From a virus: a stretch of 64,000 nucleotides of DNA. Where the stretch lies: the UHGV virus genome UHGV-0091736. One strand, 5' to 3'. A model generated the notes under the pieces. The model worked only from the letters and a program-made list of their open reading frames with translations, was not told where the DNA came from and did not search any database. The first letter of the stretch is position 1. Each line of letters starts with the position of its first letter. The position numbers and the translations under genes are program-made. Of this stretch, positions 3,630 to 48,515 are shown in pieces.

Positions 3630-5348
3630 TTAAGCTTTCTTTTCCATTGCTTTAACAATCGCCTTACAGAAACCAGAACGAACAATATCATCTGATTCAC
3701 CATCTACAATCTCAGCAAACTCATACAGATCATGTTCATCAATAAAGTTAGTAGCCCAAGTAAGACCACTCTCACGACCACGCATATCATGCTGGTTAGT
3801 ATCACCCATGCAGAACAGCTGAGAGGTTTCTCCCAATCGAGTCATGATTGAGAAGGCTTCATCTTTAGTTGTGTTCTGGAACTCATCCACGATAACAATG
3901 GCATCATTGAAAGAGCGACCACGGAGATATTCCAGAGGTACAAATTCAATGTTACCATTTCCGATTTGGCATTCATAGAACCCCTTACCATATCGCTGAG
4001 TAATAACATCAATGATAGGCATCAGGTATGGTTCAAACTTCTCACGCATCCCCCCCGGAAGTAACCCAAGAGAGTTACCCATGCCGACCGAAGGGCGACT
4101 CAGAATGATCTTCTGAATCTTACCACTCTTCAGTGCATCAATAACTGTGGAAGTGATTACAAAGGTCTTACCACAGTTACCTGTCACGAAAATGTTATCA
4201 TCTCGACGGAGCAACAGAGCACCTGTTGAGGTTGTAAAGCAATATTTAAAACCATCCTCCGTCTTCATCTTTGTGATCACAGCTTTCCCAGATTGTGGGT
4301 TGTTTGGGGTAATACTGATATGTGTCTGTTTAGAGAAATAAACACGATACTCTAGAGATTTACGAGTATATCCACCATACTCCCGACCAACTCTGTCGTA
4401 AGTTATGATAGATGATTTGTAACCACACTGCATTCCTACAAACTGGATATAGTCTGCATCATCTTTATCGGAAGTAAAGAAAGGTGGTAGTCTATTTCCT
4501 TGTAGGGCAAAACCCCCGTCCCAGAATTTAATCTCATCAAAGATGATTTTAGCATCACTCTTGTTACACAAAGGCCAGTCTTTATACCTTTTAGTCGCAC
4601 CTAGAAGAGAGAAAGATATTACATGAAACCCTGTATCATCTGACTTTTCTGAGTAATCTAAATGGAGAGTATCCAATAACTCTTTGAGTCGAGAAATCTT
4701 CCTCTCTTTCTTTAATCTGAAGACGAATCGCGAGGTGGACTCTGTTTCCAAGTGGGCATCAGCCTTGATGGCAACATGAAGACGTAATTCAGGTTCAGAT
4801 AGACCTAAACTTTTCCCTGAAACAAAGTTGGATGTAGTTTTAATTAGACCCTCAAACCCTATCTTCTTCTTGTGGTGCCTTGAAAGAAGATCAGATACCT
4901 TGATTTTGTTCGCTTTGTCTTTATCTCCCTTACGATAATAAACGACATTATGGTCATCACATAACGCCTGAGATATCCCACGGTATGTTTTAAACAAGTT
5001 CAACTCTTTACACTCTTGTTTAATATAAGCTACAGGTTTTTCTAAATGAGACTCTCCTGTGGTTAAGTTTACTGCTGTTATTAAATCACCTTCCACATAG
5101 TCAGAAATCTTTTTCCATCCAAACTCTGAGAGAAACTCGGTATCCTTATCAACACAGCCCGCAGGAGCGTCTGTGAACACAACTTGTTTAGTCTTAATAG
5201 CATTGAGTAGCTCAGACTGAAACTGGTTCTGAGGGACTACAGGCTTTGCTAAAACCACCTCTTCATACTCTCGCTTACCCTTACGAGTAACAAGTGCTTC
5301 CCGACGAAGGTCTTTCCGTGATTCTTTCCTTGATTGACGACGACTCAT
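3630..5348 (-). CDS. phoH: PhoH-like ATPase interrupted by an intein
   Basis: 572 aa; P-loop reconstituted as DAPAG + CGKT across the insert; PhoH motifs LSRPSVGMGNSLGLLPGG, VIVDEFQNTT, MGDTNQHD. Confidence 0.8.
   Translation of the reverse strand: MSRRQSRKESRKDLRREALVTRKGKREYEEVVLAKPVVPQNQFQSELLNAIKTKQVVFTDAPAGCVDKDTEFLSEFGWKKISDYVEGDLITAVNLTTGESHLEKPVAYIKQECKELNLFKTYRGISQALCDDHNVVYYRKGDKDKANKIKVSDLLSRHHKKKIGFEGLIKTTSNFVSGKSLGLSEPELRLHVAIKADAHLETESTSRFVFRLKKERKISRLKELLDTLHLDYSEKSDDTGFHVISFSLLGATKRYKDWPLCNKSDAKIIFDEIKFWDGGFALQGNRLPPFFTSDKDDADYIQFVGMQCGYKSSIITYDRVGREYGGYTRKSLEYRVYFSKQTHISITPNNPQSGKAVITKMKTEDGFKYCFTTSTGALLLRRDDNIFVTGNCGKTFVITSTVIDALKSGKIQKIILSRPSVGMGNSLGLLPGGMREKFEPYLMPIIDVITQRYGKGFYECQIGNGNIEFVPLEYLRGRSFNDAIVIVDEFQNTTKDEAFSIMTRLGETSQLFCMGDTNQHDMRGRESGLTWATNFIDEHDLYEFAEIVDGESDDIVRSGFCKAIVKAMEKKA
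4176..5156 (-). mobile_element. intein (327 aa) inside PhoH Walker A motif
   Basis: Begins C-VDKDTEF (block A like), TGESH (block B TxxH), ends FVTGN followed by +1 Cys of CGKT; in frame, no stops. Confidence 0.6.
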
Positions 5349-27762: not shown

Positions 27763-27867
27763 AACTACCTCCTATTTGATTTGGCGCACCGTGTAGGACT
27801 CCAACCTACAACCTATTTCTTAGAAGGAAATTGCTCTCTGCAATTGAGCTAACGGCGCTTATTTCAG

Positions 27868-40087: not shown

Positions 40088-40699
40088 ATGTCACTAGATA
40101 AACAAATTTATGAAGCTCTAACTGGTAACAATCTTAGTGTAGATGAAAAGAAAGCACTATTGAATATGTTGAAAGAGCGTGACCAATGGAGGAAGTATAA
40201 TAGGATTTTGTCTTTCAAGGCGTATGACTTCCAAAAGAAATTTTATGCAGCAGGATTGAAGCATAGGTTCAGGTTTCTCTGTGCGGCTAACCGAGTTGGG
40301 AAAAGTTACAGTGAAGCGTACGAATTCGCATGCCACGTTACCGGAAGATATCCAACATGGTGGACCGGTCATAAGTTTAAGAGGCCAATACTTGCGTGGG
40401 CTGTAGGGATTACAGGGGACTCAACAAGGAAAGTATTGCAAAAAGAATTATTTGGTACACCAATTGGAAAGGACACTAATCTGCTAGGTACTGGAGTTAT
40501 TCCACGAGATGCAATAGTAATAGATACTATAGAAAGGGATGGTAATAAGCTACAGATAGTACAGATTAAGCACCAGAATGAAAGGGGTGAGTTTGATGGA
40601 TTAAGTACGTTAGAATTTCGATCAACACAACAGGGTGAACATACACTGATGGGTGCTACTGTTGATTATATATGGCTGGATGAAGAGGATTGTATATAA
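40088..40699 (+). CDS. terminase large subunit, 5' exon (ATPase Walker A/B)
   Basis: Walker A AANRVGKS; Walker B YIWLDEE; ORF stops 5 codons after DEE. Confidence 0.8.
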   Translation: MSLDKQIYEALTGNNLSVDEKKALLNMLKERDQWRKYNRILSFKAYDFQKKFYAAGLKHRFRFLCAANRVGKSYSEAYEFACHVTGRYPTWWTGHKFKRPILAWAVGITGDSTRKVLQKELFGTPIGKDTNLLGTGVIPRDAIVIDTIERDGNKLQIVQIKHQNERGEFDGLSTLEFRSTQQGEHTLMGATVDYIWLDEEDCI

Positions 40700-41479
40700 C
40701 ATAGCTAGAAGTGTTGGTCCTCTATAAACTCGGTGAATTGCTGGAACCTCTGACCCTTAAGTGGAAGACAATCAGCAGCGAAGATAATGTATAACTTACT
40801 CATGATACATTATAACGTTCAACGACTATCGAAAGCATAGCCCGTATGGGTGAAGAAGCAAGTAGAGTAGATACCAAGTGGTATCGAAGTGCCGAGCAAA
40901 ACTAAGGAGTGATACATTGGGTAGACCTAACAAATCATTAGATTCAACCAAAACATGTTCAGTGTGCTCTGTAACAAAAGACATAGAATCTTTTGCAATA
41001 AGAACAAGAGCAATATCCACTGGAGAGGTTAGAATCTACCGTAAGTCTCAATGCAAAGAGTGCATGGCTGAGATGAGAAGGGATTGGGGTAAGAATAATC
41101 CAGATAAGATTCGTGAGAATAATAATTCTCCAAATAAGAGAGCTTGCGATAATGCAAGACGGGCTGGATTAGAAACTGCTTCTATTATCAGAGATGATGA
41201 GTATAATAAATTTGTTATGGAAGAAATGTATGAACTTCGAAATCTTAGAACAAAGGAAACTGGATTTCAATGGCATGTAGATCACATAATCCCTTTAAAA
41301 GGTAATAACGTATGTGGTTTTCATGTCTGGTATAACTTGCAGGTAGTTCCTGCTGTTTTCAACCTATCTAAGAGTAATAGTTTTGATGATATAGTCTGCT
41401 CTGCATGGAAACATGCAGCTGGAGAAATCCGGGATGAGATTAACGATCTTGTCTGAACAACACGCCATATGAGTCTATG
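40691..41479 (+). mobile_element. putative group I-type intron splitting the large terminase gene; carries HNH ORF
   Basis: ATPase motifs resume at AIFAQCV...TATPENG in 41477 ORF; no SD before exon 2; insert has AAACTCGGTGAA block shared with the polymerase and helicase insertions. Confidence 0.6.
40878..41456 (+). CDS. HNH homing endonuclease (intron-encoded; start may be TTG at 40917)
   Basis: Zn-finger CSVCS...CKEC plus HNH core [38 protein letters not shown]. Confidence 0.7.
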
Positions 41480-42403
41480 GCTATATTCGCACAGTGCGTC
41501 ACACGTACACTCACAACTAAAGGTCTAGTTACAATTACAGCTACACCAGAGAACGGTTTAACTGAACTGGTAGATAAATTTATGAAAGGTGAAGGGGATG
41601 AGAACACAGGTTCTCTATATTTCCAGAATGCTTCTTGGTGGGATGCTCATGCAGACCTAGGTGGACATATCACTGACCAAGATATAAAAGATATGACTGA
41701 AGGTATTCCAGCGTGGCAGTTAGAGATGCGTTCGAAAGGTATGCCATTGTTAGGAAGTGGTTTGATATATGATGTATCGGATGACACAATTAAATGTGAA
41801 CCATTCGAAATTCCTGATACGTGGAAACGTGTCTGTGCAATTGATATTGGTATTGATCACCCAACTGCTGCTGTTTGGACAGCTTACGATGCAAACACGG
41901 ATACTGTCTATGTTTACGACTCATATAAAGAAGGTGGCTTTACTCCAGTGTATCATGCTCCAGCTATTAATGGTCGTGGTCAGTGGATTCCTGTCATCCT
42001 ACCGCATGATGCGGACAATATTGAGAAAGGTAGTGGATCATCTGTTGCTCAATTCTATAAGAATGCAGGAGTTAATGTACAGAGTGAGACCTTCTACAAC
42101 AAAATTGGAATGGATGGTAAAAAGAACTTCTTTGTAGAACCCGGAATCACAGATATCCGAGAAAGAATGATGAGTGGACGCTTTAAAATCTTTAACACAG
42201 CTGCTAACGCTAAGCTATTCGAAGAGAAAGCTAGATATCACCGCAAGGTTGGTAAGATTATTAAAGAACATGATGACTTAATGGATGCAATGCGCTATTC
42301 AGCGTGCTCTGTTACACATCGTGGTCGCTCTAAGCATGACGTTAGCTACGGAAGTGCTTCTCTGTATGAGGCAAACGTAAGCAGATGGAATCAGAGTTAC
42401 TAA
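41477..42403 (+). CDS. terminase large subunit, 3' exon (ATPase motif III and nuclease domain)
   Basis: TATPENG coupling motif; CAIDIGIDHPTAAVWTAYD...VYVYDSY nuclease-type acidic motifs. Confidence 0.8.
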   Translation: MAIFAQCVTRTLTTKGLVTITATPENGLTELVDKFMKGEGDENTGSLYFQNASWWDAHADLGGHITDQDIKDMTEGIPAWQLEMRSKGMPLLGSGLIYDVSDDTIKCEPFEIPDTWKRVCAIDIGIDHPTAAVWTAYDANTDTVYVYDSYKEGGFTPVYHAPAINGRGQWIPVILPHDADNIEKGSGSSVAQFYKNAGVNVQSETFYNKIGMDGKKNFFVEPGITDIRERMMSGRFKIFNTAANAKLFEEKARYHRKVGKIIKEHDDLMDAMRYSACSVTHRGRSKHDVSYGSASLYEANVSRWNQSY

Positions 42404-44717: not shown

Positions 44718-44954
44718 ATGAACATTAGGCATCAATTCAATAAAGAGCACGCCGCCGCTTTGGCGGCTCTCAATCTTAACGGCAGTCTTGACGCAGCATT
44801 AGAGGCATTGAAAGAAAGACTCATGACAGAGATAGTTCAAACAGAACCTCATGAGAATAAGAAACGCGAAGATTGTTATCAAAAGTATAAAATGGTGGGT
44901 AGCTTAAAAGAGGTCATAAAAGCTGCTATCAATAGTGCAGGAGATGTTTCATAA
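44718..44954 (+). CDS. hypothetical protein
   Basis: 78 aa helical ORF. Confidence 0.45.
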   Translation: MNIRHQFNKEHAAALAALNLNGSLDAALEALKERLMTEIVQTEPHENKKREDCYQKYKMVGSLKEVIKAAINSAGDVS

Positions 44955-46039
44955 TGCCACAAGATAATTATATTGACCCGAACGATTTTAAATCTTTCCT
45001 CCAACTGGATGACCTGAAAGGTTCTTTCAAAGAAGAACTCGGTCGATTAGAATCTGAACAAGAACCAGAAGTGGACATTGACGATGAGTTCCCGGAAAAA
45101 GACGGTGACGATTTCGACTTTGATACCGACCTTCTCGGTGAAAGCGATGAGCTTAAGTTCGAAGATGAAGATGGTTGGGAAGATCGTGAAGAGGAAGGCG
45201 AAGTCGAAGAAGATGAGGAAGAATTTGATGAATCAGATGAAAACTCTGAAGCAGATGAGGACGACTCAAGCGATGCAGGATATGAAGATGATTCTGCTGA
45301 CGGTGAAGGTGAAGTCTTTGATGTAGACTACGAAACCGTTATCACCCTTCCTGATGGACGTGAGATGACTATTGAAGAACTTTCTAATGGCTATCTTACT
45401 GGTGCTGATATGACAGAACGAGAATCAACTCTTCAGCGTCATATGGAAGCATTTGAGGAACGTGTAGTAGGTTTGAAGGATGTATTAGAACTAGCGTCTT
45501 TAGAAGCAGACCGAGTAATTGAAGATTATAACGGTTTTGATTGGGACAAGCTTGCAGTAGAAGATCCTCAAGCATATGTTGAAAACAAACGTTTCCTAGA
45601 GAAGTACACAGCTCGCCGTCAACAGCTTGAACAGGCTCAGGTCCGTGTTAAGCAGGAAGCAGCAGCTAAAGAACAGGAAGCTTTCCAAGCCAAGAGCATT
45701 GAATGTGTTAATATTCTGAAACGTGAGATTCCAAATTGGGATGAAAACTTATATCAAAACTTAATGCAATACGCAATTGACTTAGGTGCTACTGAAGAAG
45801 AAGTATTGAAGGAAAACCGTCCGTCTATTTTCCTAGCTCTCCATAAAGCATACCAATTTGATAAAGGTAAGCAACAGGTGATGGCTAAGATTAAACGTCC
45901 CGGTGCTCCACGCAAGGTTGTGAAGTCTGATGCTGCAAAGTCTCGCACTTCCAATAAGCCCGACAACGCTAAGGTTGCCAAGGCATTCGCAGAGGGTCGC
46001 GTTAGTCACGAAGACGCATTCAAATTCCTCGTAGATTAA
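44954..46039 (+). CDS. putative scaffolding protein
   Basis: 361 aa; long Asp/Glu-rich stretch then coiled-coil; sits between portal and capsid genes. Confidence 0.5.
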   Translation: MPQDNYIDPNDFKSFLQLDDLKGSFKEELGRLESEQEPEVDIDDEFPEKDGDDFDFDTDLLGESDELKFEDEDGWEDREEEGEVEEDEEEFDESDENSEADEDDSSDAGYEDDSADGEGEVFDVDYETVITLPDGREMTIEELSNGYLTGADMTERESTLQRHMEAFEERVVGLKDVLELASLEADRVIEDYNGFDWDKLAVEDPQAYVENKRFLEKYTARRQQLEQAQVRVKQEAAAKEQEAFQAKSIECVNILKREIPNWDENLYQNLMQYAIDLGATEEEVLKENRPSIFLALHKAYQFDKGKQQVMAKIKRPGAPRKVVKSDAAKSRTSNKPDNAKVAKAFAEGRVSHEDAFKFLVD

Positions 46040-46079: not shown

Positions 46080-47138
46080 ATGGCTAATCCAACTTTATTT
46101 GTATCGTATGACCAGAATGGTAAAAAACTTTCTTTTGCTAACTGGATTTCTGTTCTGTCCCCTCAGGATACCCCGTTCGTATCCATGACCGGTAAAGAGT
46201 CTATCAACCAGACTATCTTTAGCTGGCAGACCGATGCACTGGCAAGCGTTGACGGTAATAACGCACACGTCGAAGGCTCTCGTGCTGAAGACGGCGAAAT
46301 GAAACCGACTGTTATCAAGTCTAACGTTACTCAGATTCTGCGTAAGGTTGTTCGTGTTTCTGATACTGCTAACACCACCGCTAACTACGGTCGTGGTCGT
46401 GAACTGATGTATCAGCTGGAGAAGAAAGGTAAAGAGATCAAGCGTGACCTCGAGAAAATCCTTCTGTCCGGTCAGGCTCGTACCGACGTTCTGGCTGACC
46501 AGTACCTGACTAACTCTGCAACTGATCCTGCTGTTGTTGGTCTGAATGACACCCATGCAGCTCGTAAGACTGGTGCATTCCAGTTCCTGTGTGCTCACGG
46601 TGGTCTGGCTGGTGGTGTTGTTGACAAGACCAAGAATGGTCCTGCTGACCCGGATACTGGTGCAGTAACTGTTAAAGTTGCACAGAATGCTTCTAACCTG
46701 ACCACTAACATTGGTTTCGACGAAGCTGATATCTTTGATATGACTCTGCAACTGTATACCGCTGGTTCTGAAGCAGATATCATCATGATTAACCCGGCTC
46801 ATGCTAAGATCTTCGCTGGTCTGCAAGAAAATACTCAGGGTTCACGTAAGCGTATCTTTGAGAACACCAAGCAGTTCATCTACGAAGTTAACAGCATCAC
46901 TGACCCGCTGGGTCAGAGCTACAAAATCATCGTTAACCGTTGGATGCCTACCGATGCAGTTTACTTCTTCCGTAGCGCTGACTGGACTCAGATGGTTCTC
47001 CGTGCTCCGAAACGTACTGAACTGGCTAAGGACGGTTCTTACGAGAAGTGGATGATTGAAATGGAAGTTGGTCTGCGTCACCGCAACCCATATGCTTCCG
47101 GCGTTCTGTTCACTGCTGCGGGAAAGGTGGCGGCGTAA
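46080..47138 (+). CDS. major capsid protein
   Basis: 352 aa; strong codon bias; flanked by scaffold and Ig-like extension; terminator after 47662. Confidence 0.7.
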   Translation: MANPTLFVSYDQNGKKLSFANWISVLSPQDTPFVSMTGKESINQTIFSWQTDALASVDGNNAHVEGSRAEDGEMKPTVIKSNVTQILRKVVRVSDTANTTANYGRGRELMYQLEKKGKEIKRDLEKILLSGQARTDVLADQYLTNSATDPAVVGLNDTHAARKTGAFQFLCAHGGLAGGVVDKTKNGPADPDTGAVTVKVAQNASNLTTNIGFDEADIFDMTLQLYTAGSEADIIMINPAHAKIFAGLQENTQGSRKRIFENTKQFIYEVNSITDPLGQSYKIIVNRWMPTDAVYFFRSADWTQMVLRAPKRTELAKDGSYEKWMIEMEVGLRHRNPYASGVLFTAAGKVAA

Positions 47139-47662
47139 CAGTAGACAGTGTGACTGTTAGCCCTGCGTCTTTAGCAAGTCTAGAGACAGGGGCTACTCGG
47201 CAGTTCACTGCAAGCGCGGAGAAAAGTGATGGTTCTACCGAAACAACTGGCTTTACTTGGTCAGTGACAGGAGGTGGTTCTATCACTCAGTCGGGTTTGT
47301 ATACTGCTCCGAGTGCGTCTCAATCCACTGATGTATCCATTACTGCAACTTTAGAAGGTGTTTCTGGTACAGCAACCATTTCTGAAATTGTTGCTCCTGC
47401 TCCTACTATTGTGAGTCGTGGGCCAATTACAGGTAAAGTAGGTGGTACTACCACTAACTTCAACACCATGTTTACTGTAACTAATTCTATTGCTGATGAT
47501 TATACACTTGTTGTAACTCCCGCAGAAGCTGGTACAATAAGCGCTAATAATTCGTTAAAATTAGATGCTGCTGCAAGTGGCGAAGTTACTGTTCAAGCTA
47601 GTTTGACAGCCACTCCGTCTATCAATGCAACATGCACTTTTACTGGTGTAACACCTGCTTAA
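47126..47662 (+). CDS. Ig-like (Big_2) C-terminal extension of capsid protein, reached by programmed -1 frameshift
   Basis: Slippery heptamer G_GGA_AAG at 47120-47126, 10 nt before capsid stop; -1 frame stays open and encodes VSPASL...TRQFTASAEK...FTWSVTGGGSITQSGLYTA. Confidence 0.6.
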   Translation, partial: GGGVTVDSVTVSPASLASLETGATRQFTASAEKSDGSTETTGFTWSVTGGGSITQSGLYTAPSASQSTDVSITATLEGVSGTATISEIVAPAPTIVSRGPITGKVGGTTTNFNTMFTVTNSIADDYTLVVTPAEAGTISANNSLKLDAAASGEVTVQASLTATPSINATCTFTGVTPA

Positions 47663-47667
47663 AACTA

Positions 47668-47698
47668 GACCCTGCCTTCGGGCGGGGTTTTTCGTTTT
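47668..47698 (+). terminator. rho-independent terminator
   Basis: CCCTGCCttcgGGCGGGG followed by TTTTTCGTTTT. Confidence 0.7.
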
Positions 47699-47720
47699 AA
47701 GACCTATACAAGCTAGTGTG

Positions 47721-47762: not shown

Positions 47763-48515
47763 ATGGCAATGCCAGACGTTCAAAACCCAATCAATACCTA
47801 CGGATGGCTTAAGAAGGCTGTGTCCCTCTGGGCTGACCGTGATGACTCTGAATTTATCAATCAAATTCCAAACTTTATTAATTTTGCAGAGAAAGAGATT
47901 TATCGTAACTTACGTATTCCTCCTCTGGAAAAAGAAGTCTATCTAGGGATTAAAGATGGTATAGCTTATATTCCACCAGATTATCTAGAGGCTCAATGGA
48001 TGATGAGAGCTGTGGATGGTTCAATATTTCAAGTGACTTCTCCAGAAGAGATAAGCTATCGAAGACAGCATGGGGCTATTAACTCTTCACATTGGAATAA
48101 CCAACCTGTTAATTTTGCACGGTTTGGAGCACGCTTCTTATTCTACCCTAGAATCAATGCAGATGTTCCACATTACCCTGATGATGGTAGTCCGATTGTT
48201 CCAGCAGAGAACTCCGTAATTTTAAGCTATTATGCAGATCCTCCGGAGTTTCATGAAGATGGTGATACAAGTGCGATTCTCACTATTGCACCAGAACTTC
48301 TTTTGTATTTTACTCTGAGGCATGCATGTTTATTTGTTCAAGATGATAATGGGGTTCAAAAGTGGTCTGCTTTAGGTAAGGCTATTCTTGATGAGCTAGT
48401 AGAACAAAGTAAGAAACAAGAATACTCTGGTTCTCCAATTGCTATACCTAATAACATGTCTAGGCTCCAGAGCAGCTTGCCAGATGTTTATGGAATACGT
48501 ACCTCACGAATATAA
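47763..48515 (+). CDS. virion structural protein (putative)
   Basis: 250 aa in late structural block; SD AGGAGGA. Confidence 0.5.
   Translation: MAMPDVQNPINTYGWLKKAVSLWADRDDSEFINQIPNFINFAEKEIYRNLRIPPLEKEVYLGIKDGIAYIPPDYLEAQWMMRAVDGSIFQVTSPEEISYRRQHGAINSSHWNNQPVNFARFGARFLFYPRINADVPHYPDDGSPIVPAENSVILSYYADPPEFHEDGDTSAILTIAPELLLYFTLRHACLFVQDDNGVQKWSALGKAILDELVEQSKKQEYSGSPIAIPNNMSRLQSSLPDVYGIRTSRI

Follow-up and report, generated by a model that had tools for sequence, protein, structure and literature searches.

Probable programmed −1 ribosomal frameshift adding two Ig-like domains to the major capsid protein of a phiEco32-like Kuravirus

The major capsid protein gene of the phage DNA analysed here (64,000 nucleotides in all, hereafter the window) is followed by an open reading frame in the −1 frame which encodes Ig-like domains. 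The locus raises the question of whether these domains are made as a C-terminal extension of some capsid subunits or as a separate protein. We consider, with a probability of roughly 0.9, that the end of the capsid gene is a programmed −1 ribosomal frameshift which adds two Ig-like domains to a minority of subunits, and that it is the same feature as that published for Kuraviruses.

The capsid gene and its −1 extension

By its sequence, the window is a phiEco32-like Kuravirus, a group of E. coli phages. Nucleotide identity to Kuravirus genomes is 96–98.6%, the closest record being vB_EcoP_DE5 (98.6%), and identity to phiEco32 over the capsid/extension region is ~97%; both the capsid protein (100% identity) and the junction nucleotides are the same as in phiEco32. 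The capsid ORF, the start of which has a good Shine–Dalgarno (SD) sequence (AGGAG, −6.5 kcal/mol), matches Pfam SU10_MCP (PF17236; E 2e-76) and the solved SU10 major head protein (residues 1–350; E 9e-233), with a handful of substitutions over 350 residues. The gene neighbourhood is that of Kuraviruses (portal, scaffold, capsid, adaptor), with SU10_adaptor 3′ of the capsid gene. Elsewhere in the window, the large terminase gene contains a probable group I intron, with a putative splice junction at 40690/41465.

Features of the capsid gene end and the −1 extension (positions in the window)
Feature	Position	Strand	Remarks
Major capsid protein gene	46080..47138	+	0 frame; 352 aa, 38.7 kDa
Slippery heptamer G_GGA_AAG	47120..47126	+	In phase with capsid ORF 46080–47138; P site GGA to GGG, A site AAG to AAA (predicted)
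−1 frame extension: GGG linker, two Ig-like domains, TAA 47660–47662	47126..47662	+	Predicted to be reached by shift only
Ig-like domain 1 (Big_2-like), extension residues about 4–90	47135..47395	+	AF2 strands E6–85, pLDDT >95
0-frame stop TAA, short capsid form	47136..47138	+	Embedded in −1 frame codons GTA ACA
Alternative small hairpin UAACAGU / ACUGUUA, 7 pairs, 10-nt loop	47136..47159	+	Canonical 9-nt spacing; read from sequence
GTG taken by gene callers as start of 'Ig-like domain protein'	47150..47152	+	Probably no real start
Conserved mRNA hairpin, 21 pairs	47150..47208	+	23 nt past heptamer, 11 nt past 0-frame stop; candidate modulator
Ig-like domain 2, extension residues about 91–178	47396..47659	+	AF2 strands E94–176
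Intrinsic terminator directly 3′ of extension	47667..47699	+	10-pair stem, 6 GC pairs, then T-run

The slippery heptamer lies in the right phase and is separated from the capsid stop by a spacer of 9 nt (47127–47135), in agreement with the original prediction, which had placed it 10 nt before the stop. The −1 frame, which had been described as open from the slip site through 47662, is indeed so: it is without a stop from 47060 until the TAA at 47660–47662, and its 180 codons from the heptamer onward give GK-GGG-VTVDSVTVSP.... The fusion product would have 527 aa and a mass of 55.9 kDa, compared with 38.7 kDa for the capsid protein alone (+17.2 kDa).

The heptamer by itself occurs at chance frequency (five copies on the + strand and four on the − strand in 64 kb). 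Of 41 long open stretches, this is the only one in which an in-phase X_XXY_YYZ within 60 nt of the end goes together with a −1 ORF of 100 codons or more; across a stop, the −1 frame stays open for a median of 7 codons. Transcriptional slippage was rejected, as no homopolymer run at the site is longer than three bases, and so was stop-codon read-through, as a second 0-frame stop lies two codons further on.

The AF2 model of the extension (pLDDT 96.5) consists of two β-sandwiches in tandem. Its top Foldseek match is to the tandem Big_2 repeats of LigA (8gyr; E 2e-11, 26% identity), a two-domain alignment of ~200 columns, and Big_2-CBM56 (7r3t) is another of the best PDB matches. Pfam gives no match to the extension at the default threshold; at a relaxed E-value, Big_2 (PF02368) is found at residues 6–83 with 16.2 bits (E 0.01), below the gathering cut-off of 22.8, so that the Ig assignment rests on structure prediction, fold search and homologues. 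The orthologous domain 1 of phage Paul passes Pfam Big_2 (23.4 bits), the Big_2-annotated bacterial proteins P0022 and P0023 align with the extension from 'VTSVTVSPA' on, and the extension corresponds to PHROG 13745, 'Ig domain containing protein' (E 6e-75). The original prediction of 'a Big_2 domain' is imprecise in that there are two tandem Ig-like domains rather than one, with a Pfam score short of the cut-off. In the −1 frame dN/dS is 0.15–0.22, and in both other frames it exceeds 1.3, which points to purifying selection on the extension in the −1 frame only. A terminator site equivalent to that found directly 3′ of the extension is annotated in SU10, Paul and Privateer.

Conservation and RNA structure at the junction

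The heptamer is invariant and is followed by a −1 ORF of 180–547 aa in 13 of 13 distinct Kuravirus junctions. Ten of these are metagenome contigs, obtained from a scan with a 19-mer around the heptamer which returned 52 loci; the other 42 were discarded as chance matches, mostly in GC-rich soil contigs. Linker indels among the junctions are multiples of 3, and the extensions range upward in length, to 266–547 aa in some members and 457–547 aa in some lineages. Conserved residues are specified by invariant codons in 7 of 17 cases near the junction and in 4 of 24 further on (a hand count), which is only suggestive of lower synonymous variation near the junction.

No covariation-supported stimulatory structure was found 5–9 nt 3′ of the heptamer, the supported hairpin beginning at 23 nt; nor is an SD-like element visible in the sequence upstream of the heptamer, and Rfam at gathering thresholds gave no match anywhere in the window. 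The supported hairpin (47150–47208) is an RNAalifold consensus in which 98.9% of cells are paired (27–51% in slid controls). Three of its pairs have compensatory changes, pair 66/80 occurring as UA, GC and AU, and its covariation score was reached by none of 500 shuffles; the single-sequence z-score is only −1.8 to −2.1. Some of these compensatory changes alter amino acids of the Ig domain, a hint that the RNA as such is under selection. At a distance of 23–26 nt the hairpin is too far from the heptamer for a classical stimulator, and we regard a role as a non-canonical regulator of the long/short capsid ratio as a rather doubtful, if conceivable, proposal. Its target might be terminating ribosomes, or it might alternate with the small hairpin (47136–47159), which competes with its lower stem, the ACUGUU arm being common to both. 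This small hairpin is present in the MFE fold of L002; as both of its arms are invariant in the 13 sequences, covariation speaks neither for nor against it.

A further stem-loop, which was put forward for SU10 and has the heptamer within the loop (CTGCTGC...GCGGCGG; PMC4281155), was recovered by RNAalifold (columns 1–35). It has no compensatory changes and would be melted by a ribosome positioned on the heptamer, and for these reasons we do not count it as a stimulator.

Covalent extension or separate protein

We propose that most ribosomes would terminate at TAA 47136 to give the 352-aa major capsid protein, whilst a minority would slip back one nucleotide on G_GGA_AAG (47120–47126), with tRNA-Gly re-pairing from GGA to GGG and tRNA-Lys from AAG to AAA, and would continue through GGT GGC GGC... 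in the −1 frame to 47662. The product would be a 527-aa subunit composed of an HK97-fold body, a Gly3 linker and two tandem Ig-like (Big_2/LigA-type) domains; the latter presumably face outward from the prolate head, where they would serve as weak adhesion modules. The efficiency of the shift is probably a few percent, by analogy with the identical lambda G-T heptamer, which would correspond to tens of long copies among the ~715 subunits of each head. At the lambda heptamer, strong downstream structure is not required.

Published work on close relatives supports this mechanism. SU10 mass spectrometry gave capsid forms of 38.5 and 55.4 kDa (PMC4281155), the minor capsid protein of Privateer was detected in virions (PMC7881722), and passages of PMC4281155, PMC7881722 and PMC9965538 cite phiEco32 for both capsid forms in virions; the capsid frameshift has also been described group-wide (PMC9965538). 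In the curated records of Paul and Privateer, the two ORFs are joined at GGGAAAG, and the annotation of Paul likewise cites phiEco32. In the cryo-EM study of SU10 (PMC9509320), the head lacks Ig density and a band of the long form is absent; the deposited SU10 sequence carries a 1-nt insertion which leads to a TAG 13 codons into the −1 frame (also noted in PMC9965538), so SU10 is no fair test of the window. Taken with the comparative sequence data, this annotation and the published proteomics on near-identical phages support the original claim that a fraction of capsid subunits carries an Ig-like domain through a −1 shift.

The ORF could instead be a gene of its own, translated from GTG 47150 to yield a free decoration protein of 170 aa which attaches to the capsid by non-covalent binding. 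Most database records do list a stand-alone 'Ig domain containing protein' (phiEco32 gp12 and SU10 gp10 among them), the SU10 cryo-EM paper (PMC9509320) makes the same assumption, PHROG matches Hoc-like decoration proteins weakly (E 7e-4), and the GTG is present. We nonetheless consider this very unlikely. The GTG, the sole start codon near the junction at 11 nt past the capsid stop, has an anti-SD duplex energy of −1.7 kcal/mol, equal to the background median of the window, as against −6.1 to −12.6 at the 17 other + strand starts tested in 39545–61630 (packaging and structural genes), every one of which has a strong SD; the ORF had correctly been predicted to have only this start and no SD. 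The codon is unconserved, being replaced by ATA in the NJ01 type and by GTA in the ECBP2, Paul and Bas87 types, and no start codon is present in the first 60 −1 frame codons of Privateer or CsaP_009. Both the Big_2 fold and the alignment to bacterial Big_2 proteins begin 5′ of the GTG, which is located in the middle of β-strand A of domain 1 in the AF2 model; the GGG-VTVD segment, also 5′ of it, is conserved at the amino-acid level in the −1 frame, and relatives have a capsid–Big_2 fusion as one ORF. Gene callers place the starts of homologues at many differing internal sites, thereby truncating the Ig domain, and a conserved start with its own ribosome-binding site, as for a free-standing Hoc-like decoration protein, was not found.

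Both routes might operate, with the frameshift producing the covalent long capsid form and low-level internal initiation, at GTG 47150 or at a later GTG or TTG, producing some free Ig-like protein. An in-frame GTG is present in the phiEco32-type lineage, which includes the window, and weak leaderless or SD-independent initiation is compatible with all of the computed results. Such a dual arrangement is unlikely, however, since the evidence against a functional start applies to it equally and the GTG lies in the base of the stable conserved hairpin, which would disfavour initiation; nor is internal initiation a conserved feature, because other lineages are without the codon. It is more improbable still that the locus is a decaying relic, with an inherited heptamer and ORF but next to no shifting and no part for the long form in the virion, as is apparently the case in the sequenced SU10 stock, which is viable with a broken −1 frame and has heads without Ig density (PMC9965538). 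The −1 frame of the window is intact, its dN/dS indicates continuing purifying selection on the Ig domains, every other Kuravirus examined retains the arrangement, and in some lineages the extension has been elaborated to the 457–547 aa given above.

The frameshift and the separate gene differ in the peptides that they would yield. Detection of a junction peptide (...AAGK-GGGVTVD) by mass spectrometry, as originally proposed, would fail after trypsin digestion, since the junction-spanning sequence ...TAAGKGGGVTVD... contains the junction lysine, at which trypsin cleaves. The tryptic −1 frame peptide GGGVTVDSVTVSPASLASLETGATR is better placed: its first eight residues are encoded upstream of GTG 47150, and the shifted frame is their sole possible source.

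Comparison with known systems

The capsid frameshift of the window is already known for this phage group and is not new, having been published for phiEco32, SU10, Privateer, Paul and YF01. The analysis leaves existing knowledge unchanged and confirms an isolate with the intact capsid frameshift typical of Kuraviruses. Its value is in annotation: most GenBank records, that of phiEco32 included, give the 'Ig domain containing protein' a CDS of its own with an arbitrary start, whereas the correct annotation would be a joined CDS with ribosomal slippage. Capsid-displayed Ig-like domains might mediate weak adhesion to cell surfaces or mucus, a point that bears on the use of these E. coli phages in therapy.

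The closest system is gp11/gp12 of phiEco32, with its counterparts in SU10, Paul, YF01 and other Kuraviruses (described in PMC4281155 and PMC9965538), which has the same gene, the same heptamer and the same type of two-domain, ~180-aa extension. There is no substantial difference between it and the window, apart from the broken frame of SU10 and the longer extensions of some members. The Proteus phage Privateer has a homologous capsid (57% identity, as has CsaP_009), the same GGGAAAG at the 3′ end of the capsid gene (also present in CsaP_009) and an Ig-like −1 extension; it differs in that the heptamer directly adjoins the TAA, that the extension (I-set plus Big_2) is not homologous in detail to that of the window, and that a hairpin begins at the canonical 6 nt 3′ of the heptamer. 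In PJNS034, a different heptamer, C_CCA_AAA, occupies the same place and precedes a 134-aa Ig extension. The 7-11-like phages pSal-SNUABM-01, SE131, A24 and BUCT695, with homologous capsids (55–58% identity), have no slippery heptamer and use two genes rather than recoding, namely a short capsid gene and a second capsid gene with a C-terminal extension; in pSal-SNUABM-01, A24 and BUCT695, Pfam identifies the latter as SU10_MCP plus Big_2 in one continuous ORF. In this lineage, the long/short capsid design is arrived at through a GGGAAAG site, a CCCAAAA site, or a duplicated capsid gene with an in-frame fusion, a comparative picture that may help the study of how phages dose decorated capsid subunits.

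Outside the lineage, the lambda G/GT tail assembly chaperone uses the identical G_GGA_AAG heptamer for a low-efficiency −1 shift, put at ~3.5–4% in a passage of PMC9965538 that cites Xu et al. 2004. The genes concerned differ, being those of tail chaperones and not of a capsid, and GT is an assembly factor absent from virions. The major capsid gene of T7 and T3 (10A/10B) has a −1 shift close to its 3′ end, which gives a minor, longer subunit that is built into heads, amounting to ~10% according to a passage of PMC9965538. The likeness is one of functional analogy only; the 10A/10B capsid belongs to a different sequence family from the SU10_MCP of the window. The slippery sequence of T7/T3 gene 10 is likewise unlike that of the window, and the 10B extension is short.

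More generally, phage Ig-like proteins carry a Big_2 or other Ig-like module on a virion surface protein, often appended by frameshifting and presumed to mediate weak adhesion. Fraser and co-workers are said to have described in 2006 such domains on phage structural proteins, including T4 Hoc and the C-terminal Big_2 domain of lambda gpV. Hoc, a decoration protein in its own right, is encoded by a separate gene, whereas the Ig-like domains of the window would be covalently joined to the capsid subunit.

The slip site and the -1 frame at the capsid terminus

The window region is 96–98.6% identical at the DNA level to phiEco32-like E. coli podophages (genus Kuravirus), with vB_EcoP_DE5 as the best match (98.6%) and phiEco32 at 96.9%. 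The capsid protein is 100% identical to that of phiEco32, and the solved SU10 major head protein matches its residues 1–350 (E 9e-233). As the original prediction had it, a slippery heptamer in the right phase (G_GGA_AAG) closely precedes the capsid stop; 9 nt separate it from the TAA. The -1 frame, likewise described as open through 47662, is free of stops from 47060 to a TAA at 47660–47662. A programmed -1 shift on this heptamer would yield a minority 527-aa capsid subunit extended by two Ig-like domains behind a Gly3 linker (...FTAAGK-GGG-VTVDSVTVSPASL... across the junction), with a mass of 55.9 kDa; the unshifted product has 352 aa and 38.7 kDa. We regard this as the best explanation, with a probability of about 90%.

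Bare GGGAAAG occurs in the window at the frequency expected by chance, and an in-phase X_XXY_YYZ within the last 60 nt, combined with a -1 ORF of at least 100 codons, was found in one of 41 long open stretches, that of the capsid gene only. The sole start codon nearby in the -1 frame is a GTG at 47150, and the proposal that it lacks a Shine–Dalgarno (SD) sequence held: anti-SD pairing upstream of it is -1.7 kcal/mol, equal to the background median of the window, versus -6.1 to -12.6 at 17 other plus-strand starts of packaging and structural genes, tested over 39545–61630.

Coordinates of features in the window and of tandem capsid genes in relatives (L numbers denote sequences of relatives)
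Feature	Position	Strand	Remark
tRNA-Arg	27782-27858	-	anticodon TCT; sole tRNA gene in window
Endonuclease VII/HNH-like ORF	40878-41456		192 aa; within terminase insertion
Scaffold gene	44954-46039		upstream neighbour of capsid gene
Major capsid protein	46080-47138	+	Pfam SU10_MCP, E 2e-76
Slippery heptamer GGGAAAG	47120-47126	+	phase G_GGA_AAG
Capsid 0-frame stop TAA	47136-47138	+	9 nt beyond heptamer
Intrinsic terminator	47667-47690	+	3′ of extension
Adaptor gene	47763-48515		downstream neighbour of capsid gene; SU10_adaptor
Tandem capsid paralogues, 7-11-like	L016 2482-5294
Tandem capsid paralogues, 7-11-like	L025 2185-4961
Tandem capsid paralogues, 7-11-like	L026 2191-4295
Tandem capsid paralogues, 7-11-like	L027 2146-4426

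Conservation of the junction and nature of the extension

Junctions gathered from annotated phage records, IMG/VR and metagenomes gave 13 distinct Kuravirus sequences plus SU10, and G_GGA_AAG is kept in all of them. The -1 ORF has 180, 181, 182, 266, 457, 543 or 547 codons among the Kuraviruses, lengths that mark the extension as modular, yet it always lies in the -1 frame. Among these sequences the Gly/Ser linker is GGG, GGS, GSGG or GGSG, differing by three-base indels, and dN/dS for the first domain between lineages is 0.15–0.22 in the -1 frame and 1.3–3.4 in the other two.

The extension matches the PHROGs family ‘Ig domain containing protein’ (E 6e-75), and an AlphaFold2 model built with 25 homologues (mean pLDDT 96.5) consists of two β-sandwich domains, with strands at residues 6–85 and 94–176. 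The best PDB match, Leptospira LigA with its tandem Big_2 repeats (8gyr, E 2e-11, 26% identity), spans both domains; lower-ranked matches to Ig-like tandems include SU10 nozzle domains, RB49 Hoc and the T5 pb6 Ig domain. The single Big_2 domain originally proposed is thus right as to its Ig-like character, but the model indicates two tandem Ig-like domains, of which the first is Big_2-like, with Pfam Big_2 itself remaining sub-threshold on the window extension (residues 6–83, 16.2 bits; cut-off 22.8).

That the Ig-like ORF is a stand-alone gene is the reading of phiEco32 (EU330206.1 8529–9041) and most related GenBank records, which give the extension as an independent CDS with inconsistent starts; the predicted homologues are 110–254 aa long, and the SU10 record begins its Ig CDS 127 nt past the capsid stop. 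A ribosomal-slippage join appears only in Paul, Privateer and probably YF01, the curated Paul and Privateer records joining their CDSs at GGGAAAG. In the model, GTG 47150 is residue 9, inside the first strand (residues 6–12), so that a protein begun there would be expected to miss part of strand A. The NJ01 type has ATA in place of this GTG, the ECBP2, Paul, Bas87 and Bas88 types GTA, and the next in-frame starts in lineages lacking the GTG lie 17, 35 or 48 codons inside the domain; accordingly, automatic gene callers start the homologous ‘Ig-like protein’ at many internal positions, losing its first strands. We therefore consider a stand-alone gene poorly supported and very unlikely, and its annotation an error propagated across the group.

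A mixed mode, in which frameshifting is combined with low-level internal initiation that yields some free Ig-like protein, we consider unlikely. That the extension is a decaying relic is very unlikely, given the dN/dS values in the -1 frame. The frameshift was correctly interpreted in the original prediction, as the conserved heptamer, the selection on the -1 frame and the in-frame capsid–Big_2 fusions of relatives all indicate.

Predicted mRNA structure and an insertion in the terminase gene

Applied to the 13 junctions, RNAalifold predicts a hairpin of 21 pairs at 47150–47208, within the coding region of the first Ig domain, with 98.9% of alignment cells paired (27–51% when the partner is slid) and a covariation score reached by none of 500 shuffles. 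Compensatory changes occur in three pairs, pair 66/80 being U-A, G-C or A-U; they are partly non-synonymous, with codon 22 encoding Glu, Pro, Gln or Leu, matched by the third base of Ser codon 17 and by codon 18 (Leu or Val). This hairpin starts 11 nt past the 0-frame stop and 23–26 nt past the heptamer, the latter spacing being too long for a classical stimulator. A smaller 7-bp hairpin (47136–47142 with 47153–47159) has invariant arms and the canonical 9-nt spacing, and competes with the lower stem of the larger one. Single-sequence folding of the window gives modest z-scores (-1.8 to -2.1). In Privateer a hairpin lies 6 nt 3′ of the heptamer; that of PJNS034, which is very stable (z -5.65), starts 15 nt 3′ of the heptamer there. 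The identical heptamer of lambda G-T is not known to need a downstream mRNA structure.

Elsewhere in the window, the large terminase gene (40088–42403) is split by a 774-nt insertion (40691–41464), exactly between codons 201 and 202 relative to the uninterrupted YF01 gene. The last base of the upstream exon is T and that of the insertion G. The full length of the insertion is matched by Rfam Intron_gpI at 45 bits (E 4.7e-10), slightly under the gathering score (50). Identity to YF01 is 99% in exon 2 but only 85% in exon 1, and the insertion is present in none of 125 related phage records. From its sequence, the insertion probably represents a mobile group I intron that carries a homing endonuclease, and apparently one not yet reported in Kuraviruses.

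Capsid–Ig fusions in related phages and in the literature

In Privateer and Cronobacter phage CsaP_009, whose capsid identity is 57%, GGGAAAG abuts the TAA, and the 171-aa -1 extension (I-set and Big_2) lacks any start codon over its first 60 codons. Escherichia phage PJNS034 (42% capsid identity) has C_CCA_AAA four nt before the capsid stop and a 134-aa -1 extension (L018, its sequence, 4385–4786) with Ig (I-set/Ig_3) matches; its record annotates separate ORFs only. No slippery heptamer was found in the 7-11-like phages pSal-SNUABM-01, SE131, A24 and BUCT695, in which a short capsid gene (~312 aa) and a long one (361–597 aa) stand in tandem. SU10_MCP and Big_2 lie in one uninterrupted ORF in all three long paralogues scanned with Pfam (those of pSal-SNUABM-01, A24 and BUCT695), and these tandem genes are a gene-duplication alternative to frameshifting. 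An IMG/VR contig (L010, 3–4431) has four tandem capsid paralogues with differing C-terminal extensions. Aeromonas and Vibrio relatives have neither a heptamer with a -1 extension nor tandem capsid genes. Covalent capsid–Ig fusion is thus the recurrent arrangement in the capsid family, reached by at least three genetic routes, and this recurrence is strong evidence that the window extension is made as a fusion.

The capsid frameshift is already published. A frameshift signal and a minor capsid protein in virions were reported for Privateer (PMC7881722), in a paper that credits the same observation to phiEco32 and SU10, and in the YF01 paper the feature is attributed to the entire Kuravirus-like group (PMC9965538). 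The latter also notes that the -1 frame of SU10 runs into a TAG 39 nt downstream. Consistent with this, SU10 (KM044272.1; L013 3541–3600) reads GACACTGTCTACTGTT where the window reads GACAGTGTGACTGTT, a 1-nt insertion and two substitutions; with these changes the -1 frame gains a TAG 13 codons in, and the Ig ORF lies beyond reach of the shift. This lesion may explain why cryo-EM of SU10 showed no Ig density and no long band, a study in which gp10 was taken to be a minor capsid protein that might have been lost (PMC9509320), but it conflicts with the 55.4-kDa form from 2014 mass spectrometry (PMC4281155).

According to PMC9965538, -1 shift rates in other phages are 3.5–10%, with ~3.5% for the lambda tail chaperone, which uses the identical heptamer, and ~10% for the T3/T7 capsid. 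Because the SU10 head has 715 subunits (PMC9509320), rates in this range would correspond, by analogy, to roughly 25–70 decorated subunits per head.
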